Part shown: in pieces, positions 870 to 60,081 of the stretch | Layout of the letters: each line of letters begins with the position of its first letter | Position numbering within the stretch: the first letter of the stretch is position 1 | Assembly (NCBI GenBank): GCA_041392955.1 | Contig: JAWKLB010000001.1 | Location: forward strand, 37,344-101,343 | DNA length: 64,000 bases | Direction: 5' to 3' | Origin: Chitinophagales bacterium | Lineage (GTDB): Bacteria; Bacteroidota; Bacteroidia; Chitinophagales; BACL12 | The notes under the pieces: generated by a model | Database searches by the model: none | What the model was told of the DNA's origin: nothing | Seen by the model: the letters and a program-made list of their open reading frames with translations, nothing else | Translations under genes and position numbers: made by a program

Positions 870-903
870 TTTGAATATATATTGCAACCCCGCTCCGCAC
901 GCT

Positions 904-1067
904 CTGCAAAGTCTCCAGACTTGCAATAATGCACTGCTCTGCAAAGTCTCCGACTTGCAGCACGCACTACTGCTCTGCTAAGTCTTCAGACTTGCAGCAC
1001 CCACTACAGCTCTGCAAAGTCTCCGACTTGCAGTAATGCACAGCTCTGCAAAGTCTCCGACTTGCCG
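904..1067 (+). repeat. Array of 5 GTCTCC-core palindromic units (REP/BIME-like)
   Basis: Units CTGCAAAGTCTCC(A)GACTTGCAG start at 904, 939, 975, 1012 and 1046 (period 34-37 bp). The array lies directly downstream of the stop at 869. Confidence 0.9.
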
Positions 1068-2624: not shown

Positions 2625-3728
2625 ATGCCACTCTATATGGACATCCACAGCGTTCCGGGCGTCAAGTCGCGGGATGTTGCTGAAGCACATCGCATGGACC
2701 TGTTGCATCAGGGGGAATATGGATGTAACTGCATGACCTACTGGATAGATGAGGATAGAGAAACCATTTTTTGTCTGATCGAGGCTACCGACAGAGATGC
2801 CGTTAAGAACATGCATAGCAAAGCGCATGGACTGGTGCCGCATAAGATCATTGAAGTGAGCAGCAATATTGTGCAATCTTTTTTGGGCAGAATATATGAC
2901 CCGGATGATGCCGTCATGGAAAATGGCCTCAAGGTATTTGCCAATCCGGGCTTTCGTGTACTCCTGATCGCAGAGACCATGGATCAAACTCTGATGCGGA
3001 GCCACCTTGGAACGGATGCAGCAAATACCTTGATCGCGACATTCAACGCTGAGGTCAGAAAGCAGTTATTGTTGCATAATGGAAGCGAAGTGGAACACCC
3101 GGGAGAAGGTTTTCTGGTTTCTTTTGCATCTGCCTCACAGGCCGTGAAATGCACCCTGGCCATTAAGGACCAATTGCCTGAAGAAGTTGCGCAATCTCTG
3201 GATCTGCATATGGCCATCAATGGTGGTGAGCCCATTGAGAAAAGCAACAATCTGTTTGGCGATGCTATACAGTTCGGACATTACTTGTGTTCTATTTTAA
3301 GCAAAGAAAGAGTGGCATTATCTGCCCAGATAAAAGAACTCGCTTCTAAAGAACTGGTGCAAAATCAGAAAGGTCGTTTGTACATATTATCGCAAGCCGA
3401 TGAAGATCTGCTGAAATTATTGTATGCTACACTCGAAGAGAAATATGCCGACCAGTATTTCGATCTCTCTGAATTTTCCCGCGCCATGGCCATGAGCCAA
3501 ACGCAGTTGTATCGCAAGCTGACCACACTCACCGGACACGCCTCCAATGCATTGTTAAAAGAATTCCGCCTGGAAAAGGCAAAGGAATTTATGCAGAAAG
3601 GAATCCATTCTATCTCTCAGGTAGCCTTTGACACAGGCTTTTCCAGTCCTTCCTATTTTACCAAATGCTTTAAGTCCAGATACGGACTCTTGCCCATGGA
3701 ATATATTGAGCTGCTGCAACGGCAGTGA
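2625..3728 (+). CDS. Transcriptional regulator: N-terminal DUF4242 domain, central degenerate class III cyclase-like domain, C-terminal AraC-type HTH
   Basis: The N-terminus MPLYMDIHSVPG...AEAHRMDLLHQGEYGCNCMTYWIDEDRETIFCLIEA...HSKAHGLVPHKIIEV is paralogous to the two downstream genes. The middle has GEGFLVSFASASQAVKCTLAIKD and GDAIQFG. The C-terminus QVAFDTGFSSPSYFTKCFKSRYGLLPMEY is an AraC HTH. Confidence 0.7.
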   Translation: MPLYMDIHSVPGVKSRDVAEAHRMDLLHQGEYGCNCMTYWIDEDRETIFCLIEATDRDAVKNMHSKAHGLVPHKIIEVSSNIVQSFLGRIYDPDDAVMENGLKVFANPGFRVLLIAETMDQTLMRSHLGTDAANTLIATFNAEVRKQLLLHNGSEVEHPGEGFLVSFASASQAVKCTLAIKDQLPEEVAQSLDLHMAINGGEPIEKSNNLFGDAIQFGHYLCSILSKERVALSAQIKELASKELVQNQKGRLYILSQADEDLLKLLYATLEEKYADQYFDLSEFSRAMAMSQTQLYRKLTTLTGHASNALLKEFRLEKAKEFMQKGIHSISQVAFDTGFSSPSYFTKCFKSRYGLLPMEYIELLQRQ

Positions 3729-3888
3729 TAGCAGAAGTATTGTACACCAAGTGTCTGCATGAATTTTACCATCCTTTGGACAGATTTTACCATGCCGGTG
3801 CCATGGAATGGTTGATTTGTTACAGCCGGGGAGCATTTCCCGCTCTTTCTTTGCTCTTACAAAAACAAACAAATCAAAATCAATAATT

Positions 3889-4173
3889 ATGAAAACGTAT
3901 TTGATCCAAAGGAATCTTCCCAATGCGGGAACCCTCACACTCGAACAAAAAATTTCCATTGCACAACGCTCCTGCGCCGTGATAGAAGAACTTGGCCATG
4001 ACCATTTGGTTTGGGACCACAGCTATATCACCGCTGATAACCTGTGGTGTGTATACCAGGCAGAAAATGAAGAAGTATTGCGTGAGCATGCGCGCCGCGG
4101 TCCTTTCCCGCTCGACAATATCTTCGAAGTGAAAGGAACTTTCAGTCCGGCAACTGCAGAATTAGTAGCATAA
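3889..4173 (+). CDS. DUF4242 domain protein (SCO4226-like), stand-alone, cytoplasmic
   Basis: I moved the start to the in-frame ATG at 3889 (MKTYLIQRNLP...), because the upstream extension is low-complexity. The sequence is about 94 aa with WDHSYITADNLWCVYQAENEEVLREHARRG and has no signal peptide. Confidence 0.65.
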   Translation: MKTYLIQRNLPNAGTLTLEQKISIAQRSCAVIEELGHDHLVWDHSYITADNLWCVYQAENEEVLREHARRGPFPLDNIFEVKGTFSPATAELVA

Positions 4174-4207
4174 AAAATTATTCAGGCAAAAAGTAAAACG
4201 TACTACA

Positions 4208-4828
4208 ATGAAAAAAAGAACAAGCATACTCGCGATCCTCTTTATACAATGCATCGCGCTTTCCGTTCATGCACAAACAAGTGCAGATAATTCCGGCACA
4301 CAGCATTTATATCTCGATGTCCATAAACTAGAACCCGGCTCCGTAACTTTCTCCGATGTGGAGGCTGCACATCAGAAAGATCTCGCAACAGAGGCAAAAT
4401 ATGGAGTTCAGTTCCTGAAATTCTGGGTAGATGAAAAAGAAGGTTTGGTATATTGTTTATCTTCTGCATCGGATAGTGCGGATATCAAACAAACACATGC
4501 CGAAGCACATGGTTTGATACCCGATCATATTTATGAGGTTACCGATGGCACCGCCGATCAGATGTTATCCGGCAAGAAATTGTTTTTGGATATCCATTAT
4601 CTGGGTGCAGGAAATGTAACAGCAACCGCGGTAGCCGGTGCACACGAAAAAGATCTTGCAACGCAATCAAAATACGGTGTGCACTTTATCAACTATTGGG
4701 TAGATGAAGCCGAAGGTGTTGTGATCTGTCTTTCACAGGCCGACGAAGCAGAAGATGTGATCAAAACACATACAGAAGCACATGGCCTCATCCCGACAGA
4801 AGTATTGGAAGTGCAGGAAGGTATGTAA
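4208..4828 (+). CDS. Secreted protein with two tandem DUF4242 domains
   Basis: Signal peptide MKKRTSILAILFIQCIALSVHAQ. Two internal repeats follow: LYLDVHKL...AAHQKDLATEAKYGVQFLKFWVDEKEGLVYCLS...HAEAHGLIPDHIYEV and LFLDIHYL...GAHEKDLATQSKYGVHFINYWVDEAEGVVICLS...HTEAHGLIPTEVLEV. Confidence 0.7.
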   Translation: MKKRTSILAILFIQCIALSVHAQTSADNSGTQHLYLDVHKLEPGSVTFSDVEAAHQKDLATEAKYGVQFLKFWVDEKEGLVYCLSSASDSADIKQTHAEAHGLIPDHIYEVTDGTADQMLSGKKLFLDIHYLGAGNVTATAVAGAHEKDLATQSKYGVHFINYWVDEAEGVVICLSQADEAEDVIKTHTEAHGLIPTEVLEVQEGM

Positions 4829-4896
4829 CCGGACAGCAATGCATTACTTTCTATCACCATCTGCCCATTAAAATATTTGGAGTAAAATATGATTAA

Positions 4897-4932
4897 ATGG
4901 CACCCGTTATGTCGGGTGCCATTCGTTTTTTT
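4897..4932 (+). terminator. Rho-independent terminator
   Basis: ATGGCACCCG-TTATGT-CGGGTGCCAT is a perfect 10-bp stem, followed by TCGTTTTTTT. Confidence 0.75.
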
Positions 4933-4948
4933 CATCCGCTCTTCCGCT

Positions 4949-5239
4949 CTGCAAAGTCTCCAGACTTGCAGTAATGCACAGTTCTGCAAAGTCTCCAGAC
5001 TTGCAGCACGCTCTGCTCTGCAAAGTCTCCAGACTTGCAGCACGTTCTGCTCTGCAAAGTCTCCAGACTTGCAGCACGCTCTTCCGCTCTGCAATGTCTC
5101 CGACATGCAGTAATGCACAGCTCTGCAAAGTCTCCAGACTTGCAGCACGTTCTGCTCTGCAAAGTCTCCGACTTGCAGCACCGCTCTTCCGCTCTGCAAT
5201 GTCTCCGACATGCAGAACCATTTCCTGGTCTCCGACCAG
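4949..5239 (+). repeat. Array of 8 GTCTCC-core palindromic units plus one short-stem relative
   Basis: Units start at 4949, 4984, 5018, 5052, 5089, 5123, 5157 and 5194. A short relative, CTGGTC-TCC-GACCAG, lies at 5225-5239. Linkers are drawn from three recurring sequence types. Confidence 0.9.
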
Positions 5240-5374
5240 CTTATAAAGCCTTCGGTATTATACATATTAAAGTACAAAAGCATCACACGCTTTTCATATT
5301 CTACTCCAATTGTAACATCTTTTAGTTACATTTGATATGCGCATGTAAATTCAAATTCATTAAAAAATAATATT

Positions 5375-7540
5375 ATGTTTTTTTACCGTTCAGCAAGTGT
5401 CCGGAATGCCTTATTCTTTTTTTGCATCTGCGTTTTATCTACTGTTGGCAATGCCCAGGCACCGGCAATACAATGGGAGCATTTATATTGTGATGGTCCC
5501 TATAATGATGCGACTTTTGTTCTGATGAATGATGGTGGAGCTGTTATTGGAACTTCTGCAAAAACAAATATATATTGTGAAAAATCCGAATATGGGGAAG
5601 GTGGTTATGATTACTGGATATATAGAATAGATTCAATTGGAAATATCATATGGCAAAATGTGATCGGAGGCTCGGGTGATGATAAACTTTCTTGTATAAA
5701 TAAAACCAGTGATGGCGGATTTATTTTAGCCGGAGCTTCAAATTCGCCGATATCAGGAGATAAAACTGAACCTCGTCAGGACTTGACCTATCCTTTTTCT
5801 GATGATATGTGGATTATTAAACTCGATTCAGTGGGAAACATACAATGGCAAAATACAATTGGTGGAAATTATGGAGAATGGGATGCATATATTGAACAGA
5901 CTACGAGCGGCGCTTATATATTGAGCTGCACTTCAAATTCTCATTTATCGGGAGATAAAATGGAAGATGTAATTGGGGGCACTACAAATGACGATTTTTG
6001 GATATTAAAGCTGAATCCGTCCGGAAATATCATGTGGCAAAATACAATTGGCGGTACGGAAAATGATTGGGTAAGTGCCGTGCATCAATTGCCCGATGGT
6101 GGTTATATATGTGCGGGTACATCCGCATCTCCGATATCCGGTGATAAAACAGAAGCCAATTTAACTCCAGGGTATACTGATTACTGGATCGTTAAATTGA
6201 ATAATGGCGGTGATGTTGTATGGGATAAAACCCTTGGTGGTTTATATAGTGATTGGTCAGCTGATATCATACGCGAAGATGATGGCACATTTACATTAGG
6301 AGGTTCGGGTGGTAACTATTTTGGTTTGAATTTTCAAGTGCTCCGTTTAAGTGCGGATGGTGAACTTATTTGGGAACATATATTGGATGCACCTAATTCG
6401 GATTTGAAAAGTATAAGCAAGACAATGGACGGTGGGTATATATTGGGAGGCTCTTCCAGTACGGATTATTGGACAGATAAAACGGATCCGAATAAACCTG
6501 CAAATGATTATGGATGGGAAGGTTGGGATATGTGGGTGGTTAAAACAGATTCTATGGGCAACCATGTTTGGGATAATGCCTTGGGTTCCGGTGATGATGA
6601 TGGCGTTGCATTTGTTCGGGAGACGGCAGATGGTGGATATCTGGTGAGTGGTTATGCCGGACATGATGATGAAGGAGATATATCTGATAAAGCTTCGTTA
6701 TACGACGGAACCTGGATCGTTAAATTGGCGAGTGCCGCCTGTGTGCCAACCATTGAATTATGCAATGGTATAGATGATAATTGCGATGGTATTGCCGACA
6801 ATGGTGTTGTAGAGAGCATTGTTGTATCGCCTGCCGGTCCGGTAACGTTTTGCAAAGGAGAGAGCGTTGACCTGAACGTTGTATCCTATACAGGCACCGG
6901 TGTGCAATGGAAAAAAAATGGTGAAGATATTCCAGGTGCTACGGACATAACTTACACGGCCACCAAAACAGGATTATATACATGTCAGACAAGCAGCGAT
7001 TGTGGCTTTGCTATTTCTTCCATCATCGATGTGACAGCAAACAAAATTCCAAATGCCAGTATTGATGCAGATGGACCTGTCACATTTTGCAGTGGTGATA
7101 GTGTAACATTGATCGAGACTCCATTTGGCGGATGCTCCTATCAATGGTATATAGGACATACACCAATACCCGGTGCAACAAGCACCTCCTTTGAAGCTTT
7201 TGCTGATGGCAATTACAGATGTGCCGTAACCAAAGTGGCCACGGGATGCACGGGAATTTCCAATAAGATCACTGTATCAGTTCCGTGCAGGGAAACAAAT
7301 GATCCATCCTTGCAAGATGTATTGCTATACCCAAATCCCACGTCAGATCTGTTATTTGTATCCACTTCTTTTACAGCTTTTGAATACCAGGTTACAGATA
7401 TGCCGGGTGCATTAATAGCAACCGGCATTTCGGATGAGAGCAACGCCATTTGTCCTGTTTCTGCATTGCAACCGGGTTGTTATTTTCTTACCTGTATATC
7501 AAATAACAAGATCTGCACAGTATCCTTTATTAAACAATAA
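5375..7540 (+). CDS. T9SS-secreted repeat (propeller-like) protein with MopE-like Cys motif, two Ig-like modules and type-A sorting domain
   Basis: It has a signal peptide. About 8 repeats of the pattern DGG(Y/F)IL.G.S.S..SGDKTE....DYWI.KL...GN..W...IGG follow. Then come CNGIDDNCDG and two modules of FC.G(E/D)SV.L...W..NG..IPGAT. The C-terminus LLYPNPTSDLLFV... is typical of a T9SS CTD. Confidence 0.8.
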   Translation: MFFYRSASVRNALFFFCICVLSTVGNAQAPAIQWEHLYCDGPYNDATFVLMNDGGAVIGTSAKTNIYCEKSEYGEGGYDYWIYRIDSIGNIIWQNVIGGSGDDKLSCINKTSDGGFILAGASNSPISGDKTEPRQDLTYPFSDDMWIIKLDSVGNIQWQNTIGGNYGEWDAYIEQTTSGAYILSCTSNSHLSGDKMEDVIGGTTNDDFWILKLNPSGNIMWQNTIGGTENDWVSAVHQLPDGGYICAGTSASPISGDKTEANLTPGYTDYWIVKLNNGGDVVWDKTLGGLYSDWSADIIREDDGTFTLGGSGGNYFGLNFQVLRLSADGELIWEHILDAPNSDLKSISKTMDGGYILGGSSSTDYWTDKTDPNKPANDYGWEGWDMWVVKTDSMGNHVWDNALGSGDDDGVAFVRETADGGYLVSGYAGHDDEGDISDKASLYDGTWIVKLASAACVPTIELCNGIDDNCDGIADNGVVESIVVSPAGPVTFCKGESVDLNVVSYTGTGVQWKKNGEDIPGATDITYTATKTGLYTCQTSSDCGFAISSIIDVTANKIPNASIDADGPVTFCSGDSVTLIETPFGGCSYQWYIGHTPIPGATSTSFEAFADGNYRCAVTKVATGCTGISNKITVSVPCRETNDPSLQDVLLYPNPTSDLLFVSTSFTAFEYQVTDMPGALIATGISDESNAICPVSALQPGCYFLTCISNNKICTVSFIKQ

Positions 7541-7555
7541 CCCGCTCTGCACGCT

Positions 7556-7775
7556 CTGCAAAGTCTCCGACTTGCAGCAAACCGCTCTGCAGGCTCTGCT
7601 AAGTCTCCAGATTTGCAGCACTATTCCCGGGTCTCCGACCCATTTTTAACACGCACTGCAAAGTCTCCAGACTTGCAGCACGCACTACTGCTCTGCAAAG
7701 TCTCCAGACTTGCAGCGCTAATCCCGGGTCTCCGACCCATTTTTAACACGCTCTGCTATGTCTCCAGACTTGCAG
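7556..7775 (+). repeat. Composite array: 5 long GTCTCC-core units interleaved with 2 short-stem units
   Basis: Long units start at 7556, 7596, 7656, 7693 and 7753. Short GGGTC-TCC-GACCC hairpins followed by ATTTTT lie at 7629-7641 and 7726-7738. The higher-order period is 97 bp. Confidence 0.9.
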
Positions 7776-7883
7776 CATCAACCCTGTCTCTCACCCACAT
7801 TAACCATCTCCCCAAAAAAATTATCTCCAAACATTTGCGTAGTCAAATAACTACATATATATTTGTAGTCAAATAGCTACATA

Positions 7884-8207
7884 ATGAACCTCCGACGCGA
7901 TGTTTTCCAGGCCATAGCCGACCCCACCCGCCGGGCCATTCTCTTGTTGCTGGCTTCGCAAAGTATGAGTGCCGGTGCCATAGCAGCTAATTTCGATACG
8001 GCAAGGCCAACCGTCTCCAAGCACCTGCAGATACTCACGGAATGTGAACTGTTGTCGCAGGAACACAACGGCAGGGAGGTGTATTATCATTTGAACGCTC
8101 AGGGTATGAAAGAAATAGCCGACTATATAGAACCCTTCCGCATGATGTGGGAGCATAGATTTCATAAGCTGGAATCAGTCATGAAAAAATATAAACGCAA
8201 AAAATAA
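7884..8207 (+). CDS. ArsR/SmtB family transcriptional regulator
   Basis: [20 protein letters not shown]...[10 protein letters not shown] is the canonical ArsR wHTH. Confidence 0.85.
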
Positions 8208-9085: not shown

Positions 9086-9643
9086 ATGAAAAAAGAATTA
9101 TCCGCAAAAGATCGCGACGCCCTGATAGAAATAGTACACAGGCGTTTTGCCAAACATATGCACAGGCATAAAGGCATAACATGGGATGATGTGCTGGTCA
9201 GACTGGAAAAAAATCCGAAAGCAATCCACGCTTTACAGGCTATGGAAGAAACTGGCGGAGAGCCGGATGTGATAGAAAGAGATAAAAAAACCGGTGCGAT
9301 CGTATTTTATGATTGCGCAGAGGAAAGTCCGAAGGGCAGACGTAGTTATTGTTATGATTATGAGGCCCTGATGTCGCGCAAAGAGCACAAACCCAAACAC
9401 AGTGCATTGGAGGCTGCTGCTGAAATGGGGATAGAATTATTGGATGAGGAGCAATACAAGTTTTTGCAGCAATTCGGTCCTTTCGACAATAAAACTTCCA
9501 GTTGGGTAAGAACACCGGATGCCGTTCGCGAGCTCGGCGGAGCCATTTTCGGTGATTGCCGTTTCGGTCGCATTTTCATCTACCACAACGGCGCCGAATC
9601 GTATTATGCAGCAAGAGGTTTCAGGGGGAGATTGGTGGTGTGA
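9086..9643 (+). CDS. DUF4256 domain protein
   Basis: I moved the start to the in-frame ATG at 9086 (MKKELSAKDRDALIE...). The long ORF-track extension (8711) overlaps the DoxX gene. Motifs GGEPDVI...YDCAEESPKGRRSYCYD and TSSWVRTP are present. Confidence 0.6.
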   Translation: MKKELSAKDRDALIEIVHRRFAKHMHRHKGITWDDVLVRLEKNPKAIHALQAMEETGGEPDVIERDKKTGAIVFYDCAEESPKGRRSYCYDYEALMSRKEHKPKHSALEAAAEMGIELLDEEQYKFLQQFGPFDNKTSSWVRTPDAVRELGGAIFGDCRFGRIFIYHNGAESYYAARGFRGRLVV

Positions 9644-9765
9644 AGAAATGAAAAATGAAAAATGAAAGATGAAAAATGAAAAATGAAAAATGTCCGCCGG
9701 TAGGCGGATCACCCGTAGGGTGGAAAGATGAAAAATGAAAGAGGAAAAATGAAATCGGTAATCAC
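9644..9765 (+). repeat. Period-7 array (AAAAATG)n interrupted by a conserved GC-rich double hairpin
   Basis: There are 7 heptamers at 9644-9692. TCCGCC-GGTA-GGCGGA lies at 9693-9708 and CACCC-GTA-GGGTG at 9710-9722. Six more heptamers lie at 9724-9765. The 37-nt core recurs at 59832-59868. Confidence 0.85.
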
Positions 9766-11778: not shown

Positions 11779-12951
11779 ATGCGCTGTTTTCTCCTGCTCT
11801 ATCTTACACTCTGTTTGAGTCCTTTGTTGGGATTCGAAACGCCTACGTACACCCAACGAGAAAAAAACCTTGTATTTAGTTATTCTACAACGGGTGGTGA
11901 TTTCTATGACATGAACAAGGGAAATATCCTATATGCTTTAGTTAAAAAAACTATGCAGGAAGGCGGCTATCAGGATGAACCAGTGTTGCTTTGTGTCGGA
12001 TATTTTTTGTTCGATTCAACAGACATCGCAGTCGGCTATGGAAGCTTTGATTTTTTCGATTATATCAACGGTCGTATAGACTCCACACACTATACAGGCT
12101 TGAAATTGTATTTTAGTCATGAAGTGGATTTTCGTCAGATAATTACCGTGTTAGACAATGCCATTCAGCAAAGATCTGAGATCATCAAAAGACAAAAAGT
12201 ACTGGATACGGATTTTTATGGATTTAGTAATACCTATTACCCCCGCAAGGATACCATTCGATCTATTTCTCCATTGGAAATTTCACATATTATGAAAGCG
12301 CCAGGTACTCTAGTGGATAAAATTGACCAAGAGCGGACTTTTCCCGGAGTATTTAATTTGCCGATGTGCTCTGCCTACTTTTATTATTATCAAAACGGCA
12401 GATTTCATATTTATGCAGGCGATACAAGCGGCAAGATAATCGATACATTTCACTATAGATCAAACTACGATAAGTACACCAACTGCAATGGTGAAATGAC
12501 TTTATTTCCTCCCGAGTACAAGGGCGTGGATGTTTTGGAGGTGGTAAATATTTGGTGGGTTGATCAGTTAGATACCCTGGGCGCATGTATTTTTTCTGAC
12601 GCATATACATTTTATTTTGTAGATAAGCTTGCAGATACCATAACTGGCCCTTTTACCATGCATGGAGCAGATGCCGGCAGGTGGCCTTATATGGTTTATG
12701 AAAAAAAGGCTCAACCTGTACCACACGTTGTAATGAGAACCAATGGATATCGGGAAAGTCTGATGGCCTTGTTCATCCCGGAAAAGCAATTGCTGATCTC
12801 GCCATATGCACCCGGTGCTGAAAAATTTATTTTCGGTTTGTTGGCCGGCAATGCGCCGGGTGAAATGCTTGCCTTTCATACTTATTATGGTTTTCTTTTC
12901 TGCTTGGCATTTTGCGGTATGATATGTGTAGGGTTTTTGATAAAAGGATAG
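11779..12951 (+). CDS. Hypothetical protein with N-terminal signal and C-terminal TM segment
   Basis: 390-aa ORF with an N-terminal hydrophobic leader and a C-terminal YYGFLFCLAFCGMICVGFLI. No family recognised. Confidence 0.45.
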   Translation: MRCFLLLYLTLCLSPLLGFETPTYTQREKNLVFSYSTTGGDFYDMNKGNILYALVKKTMQEGGYQDEPVLLCVGYFLFDSTDIAVGYGSFDFFDYINGRIDSTHYTGLKLYFSHEVDFRQIITVLDNAIQQRSEIIKRQKVLDTDFYGFSNTYYPRKDTIRSISPLEISHIMKAPGTLVDKIDQERTFPGVFNLPMCSAYFYYYQNGRFHIYAGDTSGKIIDTFHYRSNYDKYTNCNGEMTLFPPEYKGVDVLEVVNIWWVDQLDTLGACIFSDAYTFYFVDKLADTITGPFTMHGADAGRWPYMVYEKKAQPVPHVVMRTNGYRESLMALFIPEKQLLISPYAPGAEKFIFGLLAGNAPGEMLAFHTYYGFLFCLAFCGMICVGFLIKG

Positions 12952-19312: not shown

Positions 19313-19942
19313 ATGCGCACATTGCTTGTCTTTGTTTTTGGGATTCTCAGCAGCACTCTCCTTAGATCTCAGGTCGGTTTAGGTGTTATTCAGGTGGATG
19401 TACAAACCACTTTTCAGATAGACCTTTTCGCAAAGTTGAGTGATACTATTCCGGCAAAACAATTGAATTTTGGTTTCGACGAGGAATCGTATACTATGGA
19501 TCTTGCAAATAGGGATTCGGTGGACACATGGTTTCATCCGGAAGCTTATTTTCCCGATTACGATATTTTTCTGCTGAGATGCATGGATACCCTGAGCGGC
19601 AGATATTTAATAGAGGTCGATAGTGGAACACATGCGCAATATTGGATCCCTGCCGCTGCTACCTATACATTCAGAAGTTGGAAAGATTTCCTTGAAAATG
19701 TGCTTACGATAGAGCGCTCAAATCCACAACCTATCTATACAGTACCTGATGAAAAGGCTTCTACATTGAAATATGATGGCCAGGATTGTTTTAGTGTAAA
19801 ACAAGTGCAGGGAGCCTGGATGGAGATCACCACCTTCGGACCATGTCTGGAGAATGAATGGACCGACAGTACACTTGCCTCCGGCTGGATCAAATGGCAT
19901 GATGGCCATACATTATTGATCAACTATTACCTGATCTATTAA
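19313..19942 (+). CDS. Hypothetical secreted protein
   Basis: Signal-like N-terminus MRTLLVFVFGILSSTLLRSQ. No family recognised. Confidence 0.5.
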   Translation: MRTLLVFVFGILSSTLLRSQVGLGVIQVDVQTTFQIDLFAKLSDTIPAKQLNFGFDEESYTMDLANRDSVDTWFHPEAYFPDYDIFLLRCMDTLSGRYLIEVDSGTHAQYWIPAAATYTFRSWKDFLENVLTIERSNPQPIYTVPDEKASTLKYDGQDCFSVKQVQGAWMEITTFGPCLENEWTDSTLASGWIKWHDGHTLLINYYLIY

Positions 19943-19949
19943 TCCCGCT

Positions 19950-20049
19950 CTGCAAAGTCTCCAGACTTGCAGAACTTTATTCAGGTCTCCGACCTGCATG
20001 CTCTGCAAAATCTCCAGACTTGCATAACCTTATTCAGTTCTCCGACCGT
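19950..20049 (+). repeat. Two long plus two short GTCTCC-core palindromic units
   Basis: Long units lie at 19950-19972 and 20003-20025. The short unit CAGGTC-TCC-GACCTG lies at 19982-19996. A degenerate unit CAGTTC-TCC-GACCG lies at 20035-20049. Confidence 0.85.
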
Positions 20050-20056
20050 TCCTTAA

Positions 20057-20563
20057 ATGCCATACATCAAAAAAACACTATTTTCGTCAACAAAATCTAC
20101 AAGTATGCCAAAAGGACTTTACATCGAAAAAAGTGTCGAAATAGCACGTTCAAAAAGCGAAGTATATAATTATTTAAAATATTGCAGAAATCAGGATCAA
20201 TTCTCTGTTTGGAATATGGCCGATCCGGAAAAGAAAACAAATTACACAGGAACGGATGGAGAAGTTGGATTTGTTTATTCCTGGGACAGCACCAACAAAA
20301 ACGTGGGCGCCGGAAGTCAGGAGATAAAGAAAATGAATCCGGATGAGCGCATAGAATATGAACTGCGTTTTGAACGTCCGATGAAGAACGTAGGTGTCTC
20401 TGTATTCACGCTTGCAGAGGCCGGAAGTGGGACAAAAGTTACCTGGAATTTCAGCGGTCCTACCAAGTTCCCGATGAGTTTATTCAAAGGCATGTTCCAA
20501 AAGATGTTGGGCAAAGACATTGCAAAAAGTTTAGATAATCTAAAGACTGTACTGGAGAAATAG
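20057..20563 (+). CDS. SRPBCC family protein (polyketide cyclase/dehydrase-like)
   Basis: IEKSVEIARSKSEVYNYL...FSVWN...VTWNFSG is typical of the family. The internal ATG at 20105 (MPKGLYIEKS...) is an equally plausible start. Confidence 0.6.
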   Translation: MPYIKKTLFSSTKSTSMPKGLYIEKSVEIARSKSEVYNYLKYCRNQDQFSVWNMADPEKKTNYTGTDGEVGFVYSWDSTNKNVGAGSQEIKKMNPDERIEYELRFERPMKNVGVSVFTLAEAGSGTKVTWNFSGPTKFPMSLFKGMFQKMLGKDIAKSLDNLKTVLEK

Positions 20564-22120: not shown

Positions 22121-23293
22121 ATGCAATTTTTACCTTTGTATGGATATATGCCAGGCTACACAGGACCCGAAGACATATTATATATTTCCGGAATAGTATT
22201 ATCTCTCTTCCTTTCTTTTATTTTATTTTCTAAAAATAAAAAGACGACGCCCGATATCATCCTCGGGATATGGCTGTTGGTTTCCGGTGCCGATCTGTTC
22301 ACCTTCTTTTTATTTTTTACCGGTGCATATACGCACATGCCCGCTGTTACGGCGCTTGGTTTCCCTATGCCACTCCTGCAGGGACCCTTCTTATTTTTAT
22401 ATACAAAGTATCAAACCGGAAACAATGCTTTTCGCAGGAAGGACCTTTTGCATTTTGCACCGGCTTTGTGTTCCCTTCTGATGTTTTTCCCTTTTTATTT
22501 GCTTTCATATGCCGATCAGGTAAGGGTGTTTCAGGAAGAAGGGAAAGGATATATGGTGCAGATGTCGGTCAATGTGATCGCCATTATGGTATCCGGCGTA
22601 ATATATATTGTTTTGTCGATGCGGCGCTTGCTTTCTTTTCGCAAAAAGATCGTCGATCGCTTTTCCAATACGGATAAGATCCGTTTCAACTGGTTATTAT
22701 ATCTTATTATTGGTATTGCATGTATTTGGGTCGTGATCCTGTTCGTAGGAGAGGACCACTTGATCTTTGCTTCTTCGGCATTATTTATTTTATGGCTTGG
22801 GTATTACGGTATTAAGCAATCACAGGTGTTTAATCAGCATGCCGAGGTGGACTGGACCTATTTTACAACGAGCCAAGACCATGTGCAGGAAAATGAGATG
22901 GATGGATCCGAGCACACTAAGGTAAAATACAGCCGTTCTGCGCTCCAGGCAGAAGAGGCAATCAGGATACACAATGCGCTGCAAAAACGGATGGCGGAGC
23001 AAAAACCGTTTACGGATCCGGAACTCACGCTCGATGCACTTGCAGCCATCTTACAGGTACAACCCGACCACCTGTCGCAGGTGATCAACAGCCTGGAAGG
23101 AAAAAATTTCTACGATTATATCAATACCCTGCGGGTAGAAGAGTTCCTGCGCAAAACGCAGAATGGGGATGACATCCGTTATACCTTGCTTGCACTCGCA
23201 TTCGACTGCGGGTTCAATTCAAAGGCATCCTTCAACAGGAACTTTAAGAAGATCATGGGCACCTCGCCGAGTATGTATTTGAATAAAGGTTAG
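22121..23293 (+). CDS. Membrane-anchored AraC family transcriptional regulator
   Basis: The N-terminal half has about 6 TM segments. The C-terminus LLALAFDCGFNSKASFNRNFKKIMGTSPSMY is an AraC HTH. Confidence 0.8.
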   Translation: MQFLPLYGYMPGYTGPEDILYISGIVLSLFLSFILFSKNKKTTPDIILGIWLLVSGADLFTFFLFFTGAYTHMPAVTALGFPMPLLQGPFLFLYTKYQTGNNAFRRKDLLHFAPALCSLLMFFPFYLLSYADQVRVFQEEGKGYMVQMSVNVIAIMVSGVIYIVLSMRRLLSFRKKIVDRFSNTDKIRFNWLLYLIIGIACIWVVILFVGEDHLIFASSALFILWLGYYGIKQSQVFNQHAEVDWTYFTTSQDHVQENEMDGSEHTKVKYSRSALQAEEAIRIHNALQKRMAEQKPFTDPELTLDALAAILQVQPDHLSQVINSLEGKNFYDYINTLRVEEFLRKTQNGDDIRYTLLALAFDCGFNSKASFNRNFKKIMGTSPSMYLNKG

Positions 23294-23510
23294 GGGTTAA
23301 GGGTTAGGGGTTAAGAGTTATGGGTTAGGTGTTAGGGCCGTTATTGTCCATAGTACTTACTTTATGTCAGACTGTGACTGCGACTGCGACTGAGACTGGA
23401 CCATTGGTCATGAGGGAAAGATAATTGTTTAAAGCACTGCCTTCACATGCAGGCAGACATTCACCACTCACCCCCAAAGGGGTCCAAAGGACATTCACCA
23501 TTCACCATTT
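23288..23510 (+). repeat. Mosaic intergenic element: telomere-like (GGTTAGG)7, AGTACT anchor, (GACTGY)5, mini-hairpin pair, (CATTCAC)n
   Basis: GGTTAGG GGTTAAG GGTTAGG GGTTAAG AGTTATG GGTTAGG TGTTAGG lies at 23288-23336 and contains the AraC stop codon. AGTACT lies at 23352-23357. GACTGTGACTGCGACTGCGACTGAGACTG lies at 23369-23397. CCCC-AAA-GGGG and GTCC-AAA-GGAC lie at 23472-23492. Confidence 0.85.
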
Positions 23511-38657: not shown

Positions 38658-38741
38658 CTATTCACCATTCACCAATCACTATTCACCATTTACTATTCAC
38701 CATTCACCATTCACCATTCATCTTTCCTCATTCCTCATTAC
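38658..38741 (+). repeat. Twelve-unit period-7 array (CYATTCA/CATTCAC type) ending 13 nt before a start codon
   Basis: The units are CTATTCA CCATTCA CCAATCA CTATTCA CCATTTA CTATTCA CCATTCA CCATTCA CCATTCA TCTTTCC TCATTCC TCATTAC. Confidence 0.9.
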
Positions 38742-47309: not shown

Positions 47310-47605
47310 AATTCAATGTATCCGGATCAAAAACGATCAATACGGACTTATGTTGTACAAGGTATGCAATTAATGTAAAGAATAAAAAGTGCGGCGTCTC
47401 TTGAATGGAAAATGGCGCATGGTTGAAAAGTGAAGTCCCATTTTATAGCCGGTGAGCTGAACTCACTAATCCTGATTCCGCAAGAAGTCGCGGTTACATC
47501 TCCTTTAAATAATTAGTAATGATATTTAAATCGGCCCTGACCTTCCTAAGAGTCCTTTGGACTTTACCATTTCAAGTTATGTCTACCAATAACGACGAAC
47601 AAACG

Positions 47606-47825
47606 CACTATAGAAATTCCCCCTTGACCAGCCCACACACCCTGACCCCTGACCTTTTCTCAATACATAAAACAATAATAACCATCTAACTCACTACAGA
47701 AATTCATTCTTGAATAGGATGCACACCCTGACCCCTGACCTTCTCACAATACATAAAACAATAACAACCATCTAACTCACTATAGAAATTCCCCCTTGAA
47801 TAGGATGCACACCCTGACCCCTTTA
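47606..47825 (+). repeat. 86-bp tandem repeat, 2.5 copies, abutting the stop codon of the tail-fibre-like gene
   Basis: Units lie at 47606-47691, 47692-47777 and 47778-47825 (truncated). Each contains CACCCTGACCCCTGACC. Confidence 0.9.
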
Positions 47826-51929: not shown

Positions 51930-52160
51930 ACTCAATTATGAGCTCTTATTGTTTAAAAAAGTACTGCCCTGACCAATGACTTCTGACCCCTAACCCTTGT
52001 CATATCGCAGCAGCAGCCCAACTCAATTATGTATACTTATCCTTTTAAAAAGTACTGCCCTGACCCCTGACCCTTGTCATATCGCAGCAGCAGCCCAACT
52101 CAATTATGTGCACTTATCCTTTTAAAAAGTACTGCCCTGACCCCTGACTCCTCTCACCTT
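51930..52160 (+). repeat. Tandem repeat (91, 77 and about 61 bp units) upstream of the tail-fibre-like gene
   Basis: Units start at 51930, 52021 and 52098 with ACTCAATTATG...AAAAAGTACTGCCCTGACC... Units 1 and 2 differ in length by 14 nt, i.e. two heptamers. Confidence 0.9.
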
Positions 52161-52203: not shown

Positions 52204-52236
52204 CGGCCCTAACCCCTAACCCCAACCCCTAACATT
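52204..52236 (+). repeat. C-rich telomere-like heptamer array (CCCTAAC type)
   Basis: The sequence is CGGCCCTAACCCCTAACCCCAACCCCTAACA. The junction CGGCCCTAAC is shared with the inverted array at 23321-23340. Confidence 0.85.
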
Positions 52237-59831: not shown

Positions 59832-59909
59832 AAATGTCCGCCGGTAGGCGGACCACCCGTAGGGTGGAGGAATCAGTAATCAGTAATCAGTAATAAGTAA
59901 TAGTTAATA
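59832..59909 (+). repeat. Second copy of the GC-rich double hairpin, followed by (AGTAATC)6
   Basis: AAATGTCCGCCGGTAGGCGGACCACCCGTAGGGTGGA lies at 59832-59868 and has one substitution versus 9688-9724. Heptamers AGGAATC AGTAATC AGTAATC AGTAATA AGTAATA GTTAATA lie at 59868-59909. Confidence 0.85.
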
Positions 59910-59942: not shown

Positions 59943-60012
59943 AGTACTCATTATTTCATCAGTCCTAACGCTTAACACCTAACCCCTAACCCATAACTCT
60001 TAGCCCATAACC
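59943..60012 (+). repeat. AGTACT anchor plus C-rich telomere-like heptamer array, inverted copy of 23288-23357
   Basis: AACACCTAACCC(CTAACCC)ATAACTCTTAGCCC matches the reverse complement of 23296-23327, except for one extra heptamer and one substitution. Confidence 0.8.
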
Positions 60013-60081
60013 CCCTTCCCTCCACCGAAGCAAAAAACATTTTCAGTAATCATACACACTCTTAGTAGCACCCCGACCAAT

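Follow-up and report, generated by a model that had tools for sequence, protein, structure and literature searches.

Tandem hairpin arrays between co-directional genes of an uncultured Chitinophagales bacterium: a REP-like repeat family of narrow distribution

Introduction

When a short palindrome is repeated again and again between two genes, is it a transcription terminator, a functional RNA, a mobile element, or simply DNA that has multiplied in place? This question is raised by an array of small hairpins at positions 4949-5239 of a 64,000-nt stretch of contig JAWKLB010000001.1, from an uncultured Chitinophagales bacterium. We refer to this whole stretch as the window, and our genome-level statements are limited to it. 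An earlier note, made from the letters alone, had described the array as resembling the repetitive extragenic palindromes (REPs) and the bacterial interspersed mosaic elements (BIMEs) of other bacteria. Elements of the REP type have been studied in depth in Proteobacteria but are barely described in Bacteroidota, and the Bacteroidota subclasses of REP-associated tyrosine transposases (RAYTs) with "atypical" hairpins are known from manual inspection only. Here, we describe the family to which the array belongs, weigh the explanations for its origin and persistence, and compare it with known systems.

A family of bulged hairpins

When a covariance model of 26 aligned units was run across the window with its filters off, it detected 25 hairpin units, which lie at four intergenic loci and exclusively on the + strand. 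Twenty of them are long units scoring 32-43 bits, and the remaining five are short units scoring 16-21 bits. The - strand score at a unit site is 11 bits, and there is no further copy in the 64 kb, the next-best match having an E-value of about 0.9. The three additional loci proposed in the earlier note (904-1067, 7556-7775 and 19950-20049) are real, and together with the first one they hold every unit that the model finds. The exact words GTCTCCNGAC (n=10) and GTCTCCGAC (n=11) likewise occur on the + strand throughout, with a shuffle expectation of about 0.1 apiece. The core GTCTCC(A)GAC does not vary inside array 2, the array of 4949-5239, and is exact in 21 of the 25 units over all loci, the mean column identity among aligned units being 84%.

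The long unit has a length of 22-23 nt, in which CTGCA-A-AGTC pairs with GACTTGCAG to form 9 bp, with a single bulged base and TCC or TCCA as the loop. The stem begins with C-G and T-A pairs, and folds with an energy of about -8 to -9 kcal/mol in the case of RNA and -5 in that of DNA. The short unit keeps the GTC-TCC-GAC top on a stem of 5-6 bp, of which there are three kinds (CTGGTC/GACCAG, CAGGTC/GACCTG and GGGTC/GACCC), all with the GTCTCCGAC top in common. It invariably stands 3' of a long unit, with a core-to-core gap of exactly 18 nt whose sequence resembles AACyTTATTC. In the alignment, the units are flanked by GCT on the 5' side and by CAC, TAA or AAC on the 3' side, the - strand foot being (C)GTG, ATTA or GTT. 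The repeating module has about 34 nt and is made of an 11-15-nt leader or linker with a GCT end and then the 22-23-nt hairpin, and a CC(C)GCTCT-type leader opens every array.

The pairing of the stem is under constraint, be it in single-stranded DNA or in RNA, since stem positions change in a compensatory manner, pairing is far above that of displaced alignments, and shuffled alignments never match the covariation. Each of the two strands shows one wobble pair (G-T in DNA, G-U in RNA). A pair is formed by 88% of the alignment cells, a proportion that falls to 19-32% after sliding the partners by 1-3 columns. Double-sided changes that replace A-U by G-C or U-A occur at pair 9-22 in three distinct sequences and at pair 10-21 in seven, and none of 500 shuffles reached the observed covariation. 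Within array 2, a compensatory flip from A-T to T-A is present in units 5089-5110 and 5193-5216, and the flipped variant, CTGCAATGTC/GACATGCAG, still has the bulge.

Array 2 proved to be built as the earlier note had described, with eight long units at a period of 34-37 nt, the last start lying at 5193/5194, and we add a ninth, short unit. The consensus of its long units is CTGCAA(A/T)GTCTCC(A)GAC(T/A)TGCAG. Tandem Repeats Finder (TRF) reports a 34-nt period with 7.8 copies and a higher-order one of 105 nt with 2.7 copies and 87% matches, and the linker census returns the three expected types: TAATGCACAGYT in two copies, CACGYTCTGCT in three, and CAC(C)GCTCTTCCGCT in two. The 105-nt period reflects a three-unit block, as the linkers follow one another in the order c-a-b-b-c-a-b-c. 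The RNA folding z-score of this array is -7.2. The coordinates of all four arrays and of the signals next to them are collected in Table 1.

Table 1. Hairpin arrays and associated transcription signals in the window
Feature	Position	Strand	Remarks
Array 1	890-1067	+	Leader CCGCTCCGCACGCT and five long units; two-unit block
Array 1, long units	905-925, 939-960, 975-997, 1012-1033, 1048-1065	+	
Intrinsic terminator of gene 4208-4828	4896-4932	+	11-bp GC-rich stem (4896-4923), 6-nt loop, T7
Array 2	4933-5239	+	Leader CATCCGCTCTTCCGCT, eight long units, one short unit
Array 2, long units	starts 4949, 4984, 5018, 5052, 5089, 5123, 5157, 5193/5194	+	Period 34-37 nt
Array 2, ninth unit (short)	5225-5239	+	CTGGTCTCCGACCAG
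-7 promoter consensus match	5327-5334	+	TACATTTG; upstream of gene 5375-7540
Array 3	7541-7778	+	Leader CCGCTCTGCACGCT, five long units (two degenerate), two short; long-long-short block
Array 3, short unit	7629-7651	+	GGGTCTCCGACCC then ATTTTTAACA; terminator-like; identical copy at 7726-7748
-7 promoter-like motif	7858-7865	+	TATATTTG; TTTG 24 nt upstream; for ArsR-family gene 7884, downstream of array 3
Array 4	19944-20049	+	Leader CCCGCT, long-short-long-short, last two units degenerate

Gene context and transcription signals

All four arrays lie between co-directional + strand genes and in sense orientation, as the earlier note had observed, and their closeness to the upstream stop can now be put at 7-121 nt. 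From that stop to the start of the array there are 35, 121, 16 and 7 nt in arrays 1 to 4, and from the end of the array to the next start 120, 136, 109 and 56 nt. Array 1 follows the stop of a Fib_succ_major gene (201-869), array 3 the stop at 7540, and array 4 the stop at 19942, with the downstream gene start called at 20105 in Logan contigs. The neighbouring genes have no common theme, and encode Fib_succ_major, glyoxalase, SCO4226-like, ArsR and SRPBCC proteins and a protein sorted by the type IX secretion system (T9SS). The window has a GC content of 44%, with no island signal along its length. It contains 62 gene junctions. Two + strand genes meet at 47 of them, four of which are occupied by an array.

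The organism uses canonical terminators, found at 4896, 30482, 55503 and 56409. The one at 4896-4932, with an RNA folding energy of -19.8 kcal/mol, is confirmed in a Logan contig (L102); it bounds array 2 on the left, where the leader CATCCGCTCTTCCGCT adjoins its T-run directly, and does not belong to the repeat family. Since this complete terminator precedes the array, the view that array 2 is more than the terminator of the upstream gene holds. At the other three loci, the array is the sole structured element 3' of the upstream gene, and the hairpin scan found no other hairpin between the Fib_succ_major stop and the next gene at 1187. The terminator consensus scan is passed by the short units of array 3 (7629-7641 and 7726-7738), in which a GC-rich 5-bp stem of -5.8 kcal/mol is followed by ATTTTT, and by no long unit.

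On the downstream side, the Bacteroidetes -7 promoter consensus is TAnnTTTG. Matches to it lie 3' of arrays 2 and 3 (Table 1), which would place both arrays outside the 5' untranslated region of the next gene, as judged by the consensus match alone.

The arrays in independent assemblies

Tandem repeats invite the suspicion of a sequencing or assembly artefact, such as concatenated adapters. Indeed, the linker CACGCTCTTCCGCT (5075-5088 and 5179-5192) has the 11-mer ACGCTCTTCCG in common with the Illumina TruSeq adapter, and the unit core has TGTCTCCGAC in common with the Ion/454 A adapter. However, beyond these short words the units are unlike every adapter, and we judge the sharing to be coincidental, because the arrays fall exactly between intact genes, 3' of stops and 5' of promoters, and because independent assemblies agree. 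Array 4 is spanned with identical sequence by Logan contigs from three independent runs (SRR28338156, SRR32022410 and SRR32022564). Positions 7541-7733 of array 3 are identical in another contig (L002), and others match the first two units of array 2 (4933-5012) and its end (5186-5239) without any mismatch in the arrays. Logan contigs stop inside arrays, and the interior of array 2 (5013-5185) is supported only by the assembly of the metagenome-assembled genome (MAG). A related unit is, moreover, present in an unrelated MAG. With the arrays reproduced in this way, an artefact is ruled out for all practical purposes.

Distribution beyond the window

The hairpin family is very narrow taxonomically, because it is absent from Rfam, plasmids, phages, JGI metagenomes and the loci inspected in relatives, and nearly so from species representatives. 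The earlier note did not recognise the repeat as a described family and had named Rfam as a place where it might yet turn up; the whole window has no match there at gathering thresholds, and region 4800-5400 gives chance-level matches alone (E > 2). Exact-unit scans returned one solitary copy among 185,579 GTDB species representatives, in a Chitinophagaceae MAG (LC078), and no match among the JGI metagenome contigs. Searches by blastn against plasmids and phages gave no match either. Neither the core nor a covariance-model match is present in the loci around paralogues of the 721-aa T9SS protein, or in 20-kb loci of the nearest relatives (about 80% EF-Ts identity, syntenic with 52-64 kb of the window). 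Six-frame translations of the arrays had no match as protein queries, and the literature held nothing specific on this core or on REPs in Chitinophagaceae.

Several candidates found along the way were set aside. A scan of the JGI contigs with degenerate arms gave seven matches, all solitary chance matches in coding-looking DNA. An arm-independent scan of IMG/VR for tandem cores gave 77, of which 17 were inspected and nearly all were coding repeats of GTC-TCC-GAC codons (Val-Ser-Asp). The single intergenic one, a 36-nt array in the scan, belongs to a high-GC IMG/VR contig (L078, 3300032884_000229), where it occupies 12377-12527 and comprises six or more copies spaced by about 28-30 nt, and its hairpin CGGTCTCCGACCG has the GTCTCCGAC top of the short unit. 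This array is antisense to its flanking genes, and we judged it unrelated, the resemblance being probably coincidental. Finally, a phmmer search with a 104-aa open reading frame (ORF) of the array against 1.84 billion representatives gave two weak matches, both to repeat proteins, of which one was traced (P0242) and comes from a contig that has a eukaryotic-looking gene.

Growth and movement of the arrays

Each array has grown in place through the tandem duplication of one to three units at a time, since every one of them has a higher-order period of its own (71, 105, 97 and 53 nt in arrays 1 to 4). At the same time, some linkers are common to different loci: arrays 1 and 2 both contain type a, TAATGCAC(A/T)GCT, and array 1 also has CACGCACTACTGCT in common with array 3. 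The solitary copy outside the window (L001, in LC078) consists of linker b plus the hairpin, with 97% identity over 34 nt and unrelated flanks, and it too is situated between co-directional genes in sense orientation. The presence of the 34-nt module in this unrelated context implies that it has moved between contexts, which goes beyond slippage in place.

A proposed young REP-like element and its alternatives

The reading that we favour, with a probability of roughly 0.5, is that of a young, lineage-restricted REP-like element, seeded as a 34-nt module, amplified locally, tolerated 3' of genes in sense orientation, and perhaps acting in RNA as an exonuclease barrier or weak terminator. We regard it mainly as self-amplifying DNA, with its effects on transcripts as secondary. 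According to this proposal, new loci would be seeded by a hairpin-dependent DNA process, be it the recombination of existing copies or a transposition of single strands, for which a Y1/RAYT-type enzyme would be encoded elsewhere, and copies would persist solely in sense orientation in the 3' flanks of genes. Read-through transcripts would then fold into successive, independent hairpins, each of about -8 kcal/mol. By analogy with enterobacterial REPs and BIMEs, these hairpins might hinder 3'-to-5' exonucleases and, between co-directional genes, cause partial termination or insulation of transcription. The short, GC-richer unit with its T-run would be the likeliest terminating part, and may be a derivative of the long hairpin that kept the GTC-TCC-GAC top on a different stem.

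Several observations weigh against this proposal. The loci are clustered, with four of the 18 ++ junctions occupied in the first 20 kb and none of the 29 beyond (hypergeometric p of about 0.02), and this does not look like a REP family dispersed over a genome. The two REP superfamilies are defined by a GTAG or a CGTC tag (PMC3733652), and the present units have neither. Among the approximately 60 ORFs of the window, Pfam and NCBIfam revealed no RAYT, Y1 transposase, integrase or other mobilising enzyme, with no PF01797-type match, and no HUH...Y motif occurs in the six frames. The hairpins of the long units are modest and without U-runs. The evidence from sense orientation is weak, given that most junctions are ++ anyway and that the loci may share descent; even with the LC078 copy included, five out of five in sense corresponds to a one-sided p of about 0.03. 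Lastly, array 2 stands behind a strong terminator, and is thus dispensable for termination, and transcription there may be little.

The main rival is purely neutral or selfish tandem DNA, with a single origin or arrival, recombination or gene conversion carrying copies to neighbouring loci, and slippage at the palindromes, and with neither a role in RNA nor an enzyme. The array-specific periods, the near-identity of the units, their clustering in the first 20 kb, their near absence from public collections, the many other intergenic tandem repeats tolerated in the lineage and the position of array 2 behind a terminator all agree with such an origin. Even so, we find it rather unlikely, since the compensatory stem changes and the kept bulge indicate selection on pairing, the short unit keeps its top on three different stems, and slippage alone would be hard-pressed to bring the module into the unrelated flanks of the LC078 copy. 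The constraint on the stem also tells against a reading of the units as binding sites in double-stranded or cruciform DNA, occupied by a nucleoid-associated protein, a topoisomerase or a regulator and organising supercoiling domains. The high conservation of the core within a variable flanking stem, the regular spacing of 34-37 nt (about 3.3-3.5 helical turns) and the modular linkers, as in BIMEs, whose binding of proteins is established, would suit this role. Nevertheless, covariation of the stem favours pairing over base-specific recognition of half-sites, the unit is asymmetric owing to its loop and bulge, no candidate protein was found, and the unit exists at only four loci in the 64 kb, which makes a binding-site array quite improbable.

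Two further accounts fit less well. Read on the - strand, the units would present GGA or UGGA loops (GUC-GGA-GAC), and the arrays could then be antisense small RNA (sRNA) genes acting as CsrB/RsmZ-like sponges for CsrA/RsmA-type proteins, whose binding motif is such a loop. The loops follow directly from the - strand sequence, and the hairpin at 4896-4923 scores as a - strand terminator too, located just past array 2 in that direction. On the other hand, no - strand TAnnTTTG motif lies near any array, every copy, including the one in LC078, is sense to both neighbours, which free-standing sRNA genes would not need, and the window encodes no RNA-binding protein. CsrA is, moreover, not generally known from Bacteroidota. 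Altogether, we consider sRNA genes highly unlikely. The bulged stem base, the uniform orientation and the small co-directional accessory genes of the window (SRPBCC, glyoxalase, ArsR, methyltransferases) might instead recall attC-like recombination sites at the cassette boundaries of an integron. The repeat, however, occupies only four of the 47 ++ junctions, each site holds multiple 22-nt units where an integron would have one attC of 57-141 nt, including R and L boxes, per cassette, and Pfam shows no integrase in the window, so that integron sites must be deemed extremely unlikely.

There is also a bolder version of the proposal of a REP-like element, to which we attach little likelihood: the arrays may mark an undescribed hairpin-mobilising system of Bacteroidota, or else be functional multi-hairpin RNAs. 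In the former case, a Y1 enzyme of the subclass-2.6 type would recognise an untagged, bulged hairpin with the GTC-TCC(A)-GAC top and insert 34-nt modules head-to-tail, unlike REPIN doublets. In the latter, the arrays would work as protein sponges or as processed units, and not as passive 3' structures.

The family provides an example of amplification that is probably young, untagged and strictly head-to-tail, with a grammar of leader, long and short hairpins and a duplication history specific to each locus. Were a cognate enzyme to exist, its substrate would be defined by this family; otherwise, the family shows how palindromes in tandem can originate and spread in the absence of an enzyme. 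From a practical point of view, such arrays break short-read assemblies and create spurious ORFs of 90-104 aa.

Other repeats and genes of the window

All six reading frames of array 2 but one are open, with spurious ORFs at 4907-5221 (-), 4974-5246 (+) and 5035-5325 (+), which annotation pipelines could record as hypothetical proteins. Downstream of array 3, the near-identical boxes TAGTCAAATAACTACA and TAGTCAAATAGCTACA (7835-7880) flank the TATATTTG motif upstream of the ArsR-family gene (7884-8207), of which they are likely the operator.

Intergenic tandem repeats of 6-8 nt abound both in the present organism and in relatives whose EF-Ts identity is about 80%, and resemble the short tandemly repeated repetitive (STRR) heptamers of cyanobacteria. 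In the window they lie at 9641-9692, 23284-23337, 23370-23398, 38660-38720, 52207-52233, 59871-59901 and 59964-60014, with the motifs TGAAAAA, GGTTAGG, GACTGC, ATTCACC, CCCTAAC, AATCAGT and CCTAACC. Those of the relatives (L089, 3497-3962; L093, 3352-3398) include AGGAGAG, GGTGAGT, TACCTGA and ACTCACCC. The GGTTAGG array is telomere-like in look and overlaps the stop of an AraC-family gene (22121-23293). Two longer repeats, at 47587-47822 (86 nt, 2.7 copies) and 51983-52148 (77 nt, 2.2 copies), both contain CCCTGAC heptamers and flank a minus-strand gene of 1328 aa with a Peptidase_S74 (endosialidase chaperone) domain.

From position 1 to 44200, small accessory genes follow one another in the same direction in a very long series, almost without minus-strand genes, and come from families such as SRPBCC/AHSA1, glyoxalase, ArsR, DoxX, DUF1801/OmdA, GNAT and several methyltransferases. 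Three SCO4226-like paralogues occupy 2625-4828. Synteny with relatives is confined to 52-64 kb (LemA, Zn-peptidase, rplM-rpsI-rpsB-tsf, DUF7948 and GH92). The relatives (L003 1-22112, L004 and L097) have up to 12 paralogues in tandem, T9SS-sorted Ig-like proteins about 700 aa long, separated by spacers of 3-30 nt, and the window has a single copy (5375-7540), between arrays 2 and 3.

Comparison with known systems

Intrinsic terminators are similar to these arrays in consisting of a hairpin directly 3' of a gene, and the short units at 7629 and 7726, GC-rich and followed by ATTTTT, come close to one. The long units differ in their AT-rich bulged stems, in the lack of a U-run and in being repeated up to nine times, and array 2 comes after a genuine terminator. 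A CRISPR array, with its unique spacers of at least about 20 nt and nearby cas genes, was also rejected, given linkers of 8-23 nt and few recurring types and no cas domains in the window (Pfam).

The REP units of BIMEs, of Y and Z types, alternate in orientation, and BIMEs are bound by gyrase, the integration host factor (IHF) and DNA polymerase I (Pol I). With the BIMEs of E. coli and Salmonella, the present arrays have in common the mosaic of palindromes with few recurring linkers, the intergenic placement 3' of genes and, by analogy, a likely effect in RNA, namely protection of the upstream mRNA and partial termination. Their sequences are unrelated, and all 25 units are in direct orientation here. 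The comparison drawn in the earlier note can thus be kept in part: the units are extragenic imperfect palindromes with recurring linkers, placed 3' of genes, but they run head-to-tail, carry no GTAG or CGTC tag and have no RAYT in the window.

The remark that REPs belong mainly to Proteobacteria needs qualifying as well. CGTC repeats have been reported in Bacteroidetes (PMC3733652), and so have the RAYT subclasses 2.4 and 2.6, the latter flanked by "atypical secondary structures" with other copies in the genome (PMC6006769). These Bacteroidetes REPtrons share the phylum with our family, and a bulged hairpin is the type of substrate that Y1 enzymes recognise; here, however, it stands without the GT[AG]G foot and with no RAYT within the 64 kb, and no inverted REP doublets, as in REPINs, were found at the arrays. 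By the same analogy, a cognate RAYT-type enzyme is possibly encoded elsewhere in the genome.

The closest resemblance is to tandem REPs, such as the head-tail dimers and clusters of Pseudomonas, GTAG-23 of Thermomicrobium roseum and dRS3 of Neisseria (PMC3733652). Two general features of REPs are present here: an imperfect palindrome of 20-40 bp that forms a stem-loop, and a location outside genes, mostly 3' of them and between unidirectional or convergent ORFs, the present ones being co-directional. REPs also have a high copy number spread over the genome; the window contributes 25 units at four loci, all in its first 20 kb. With the tandem REPs in particular, the present units share the extragenic 20-40-bp palindrome, the stems of 8-9 bp, loops of 3-5 nt and short unpaired tails, as well as the site near the upstream 3' end, the reiteration of unit plus flank and the clustering at few loci. 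Uni-directional REPs are indeed known to lie near the 3' end of the ORF that precedes them, tandem reiteration may include the DNA next to a REP, and certain families form clusters at few loci (PMC3733652). The tag of the two superfamilies is an unpaired tetranucleotide at one end, and the CGTC (TGTC/CCTC) families are further marked by a CCA tail and by A-T as the first two pairs of the stem (PMC3733652). Our units differ in the GCT of their 5' flank on the + strand and the mostly (C)GTG foot on the - strand, in the constant bulged base of the stem and the exclusively head-to-tail arrangement, and in an uncultured Chitinophagales host with an extremely narrow range. To judge from its sequence, the hairpin family is REP-like in kind, and stands outside every described REP family.

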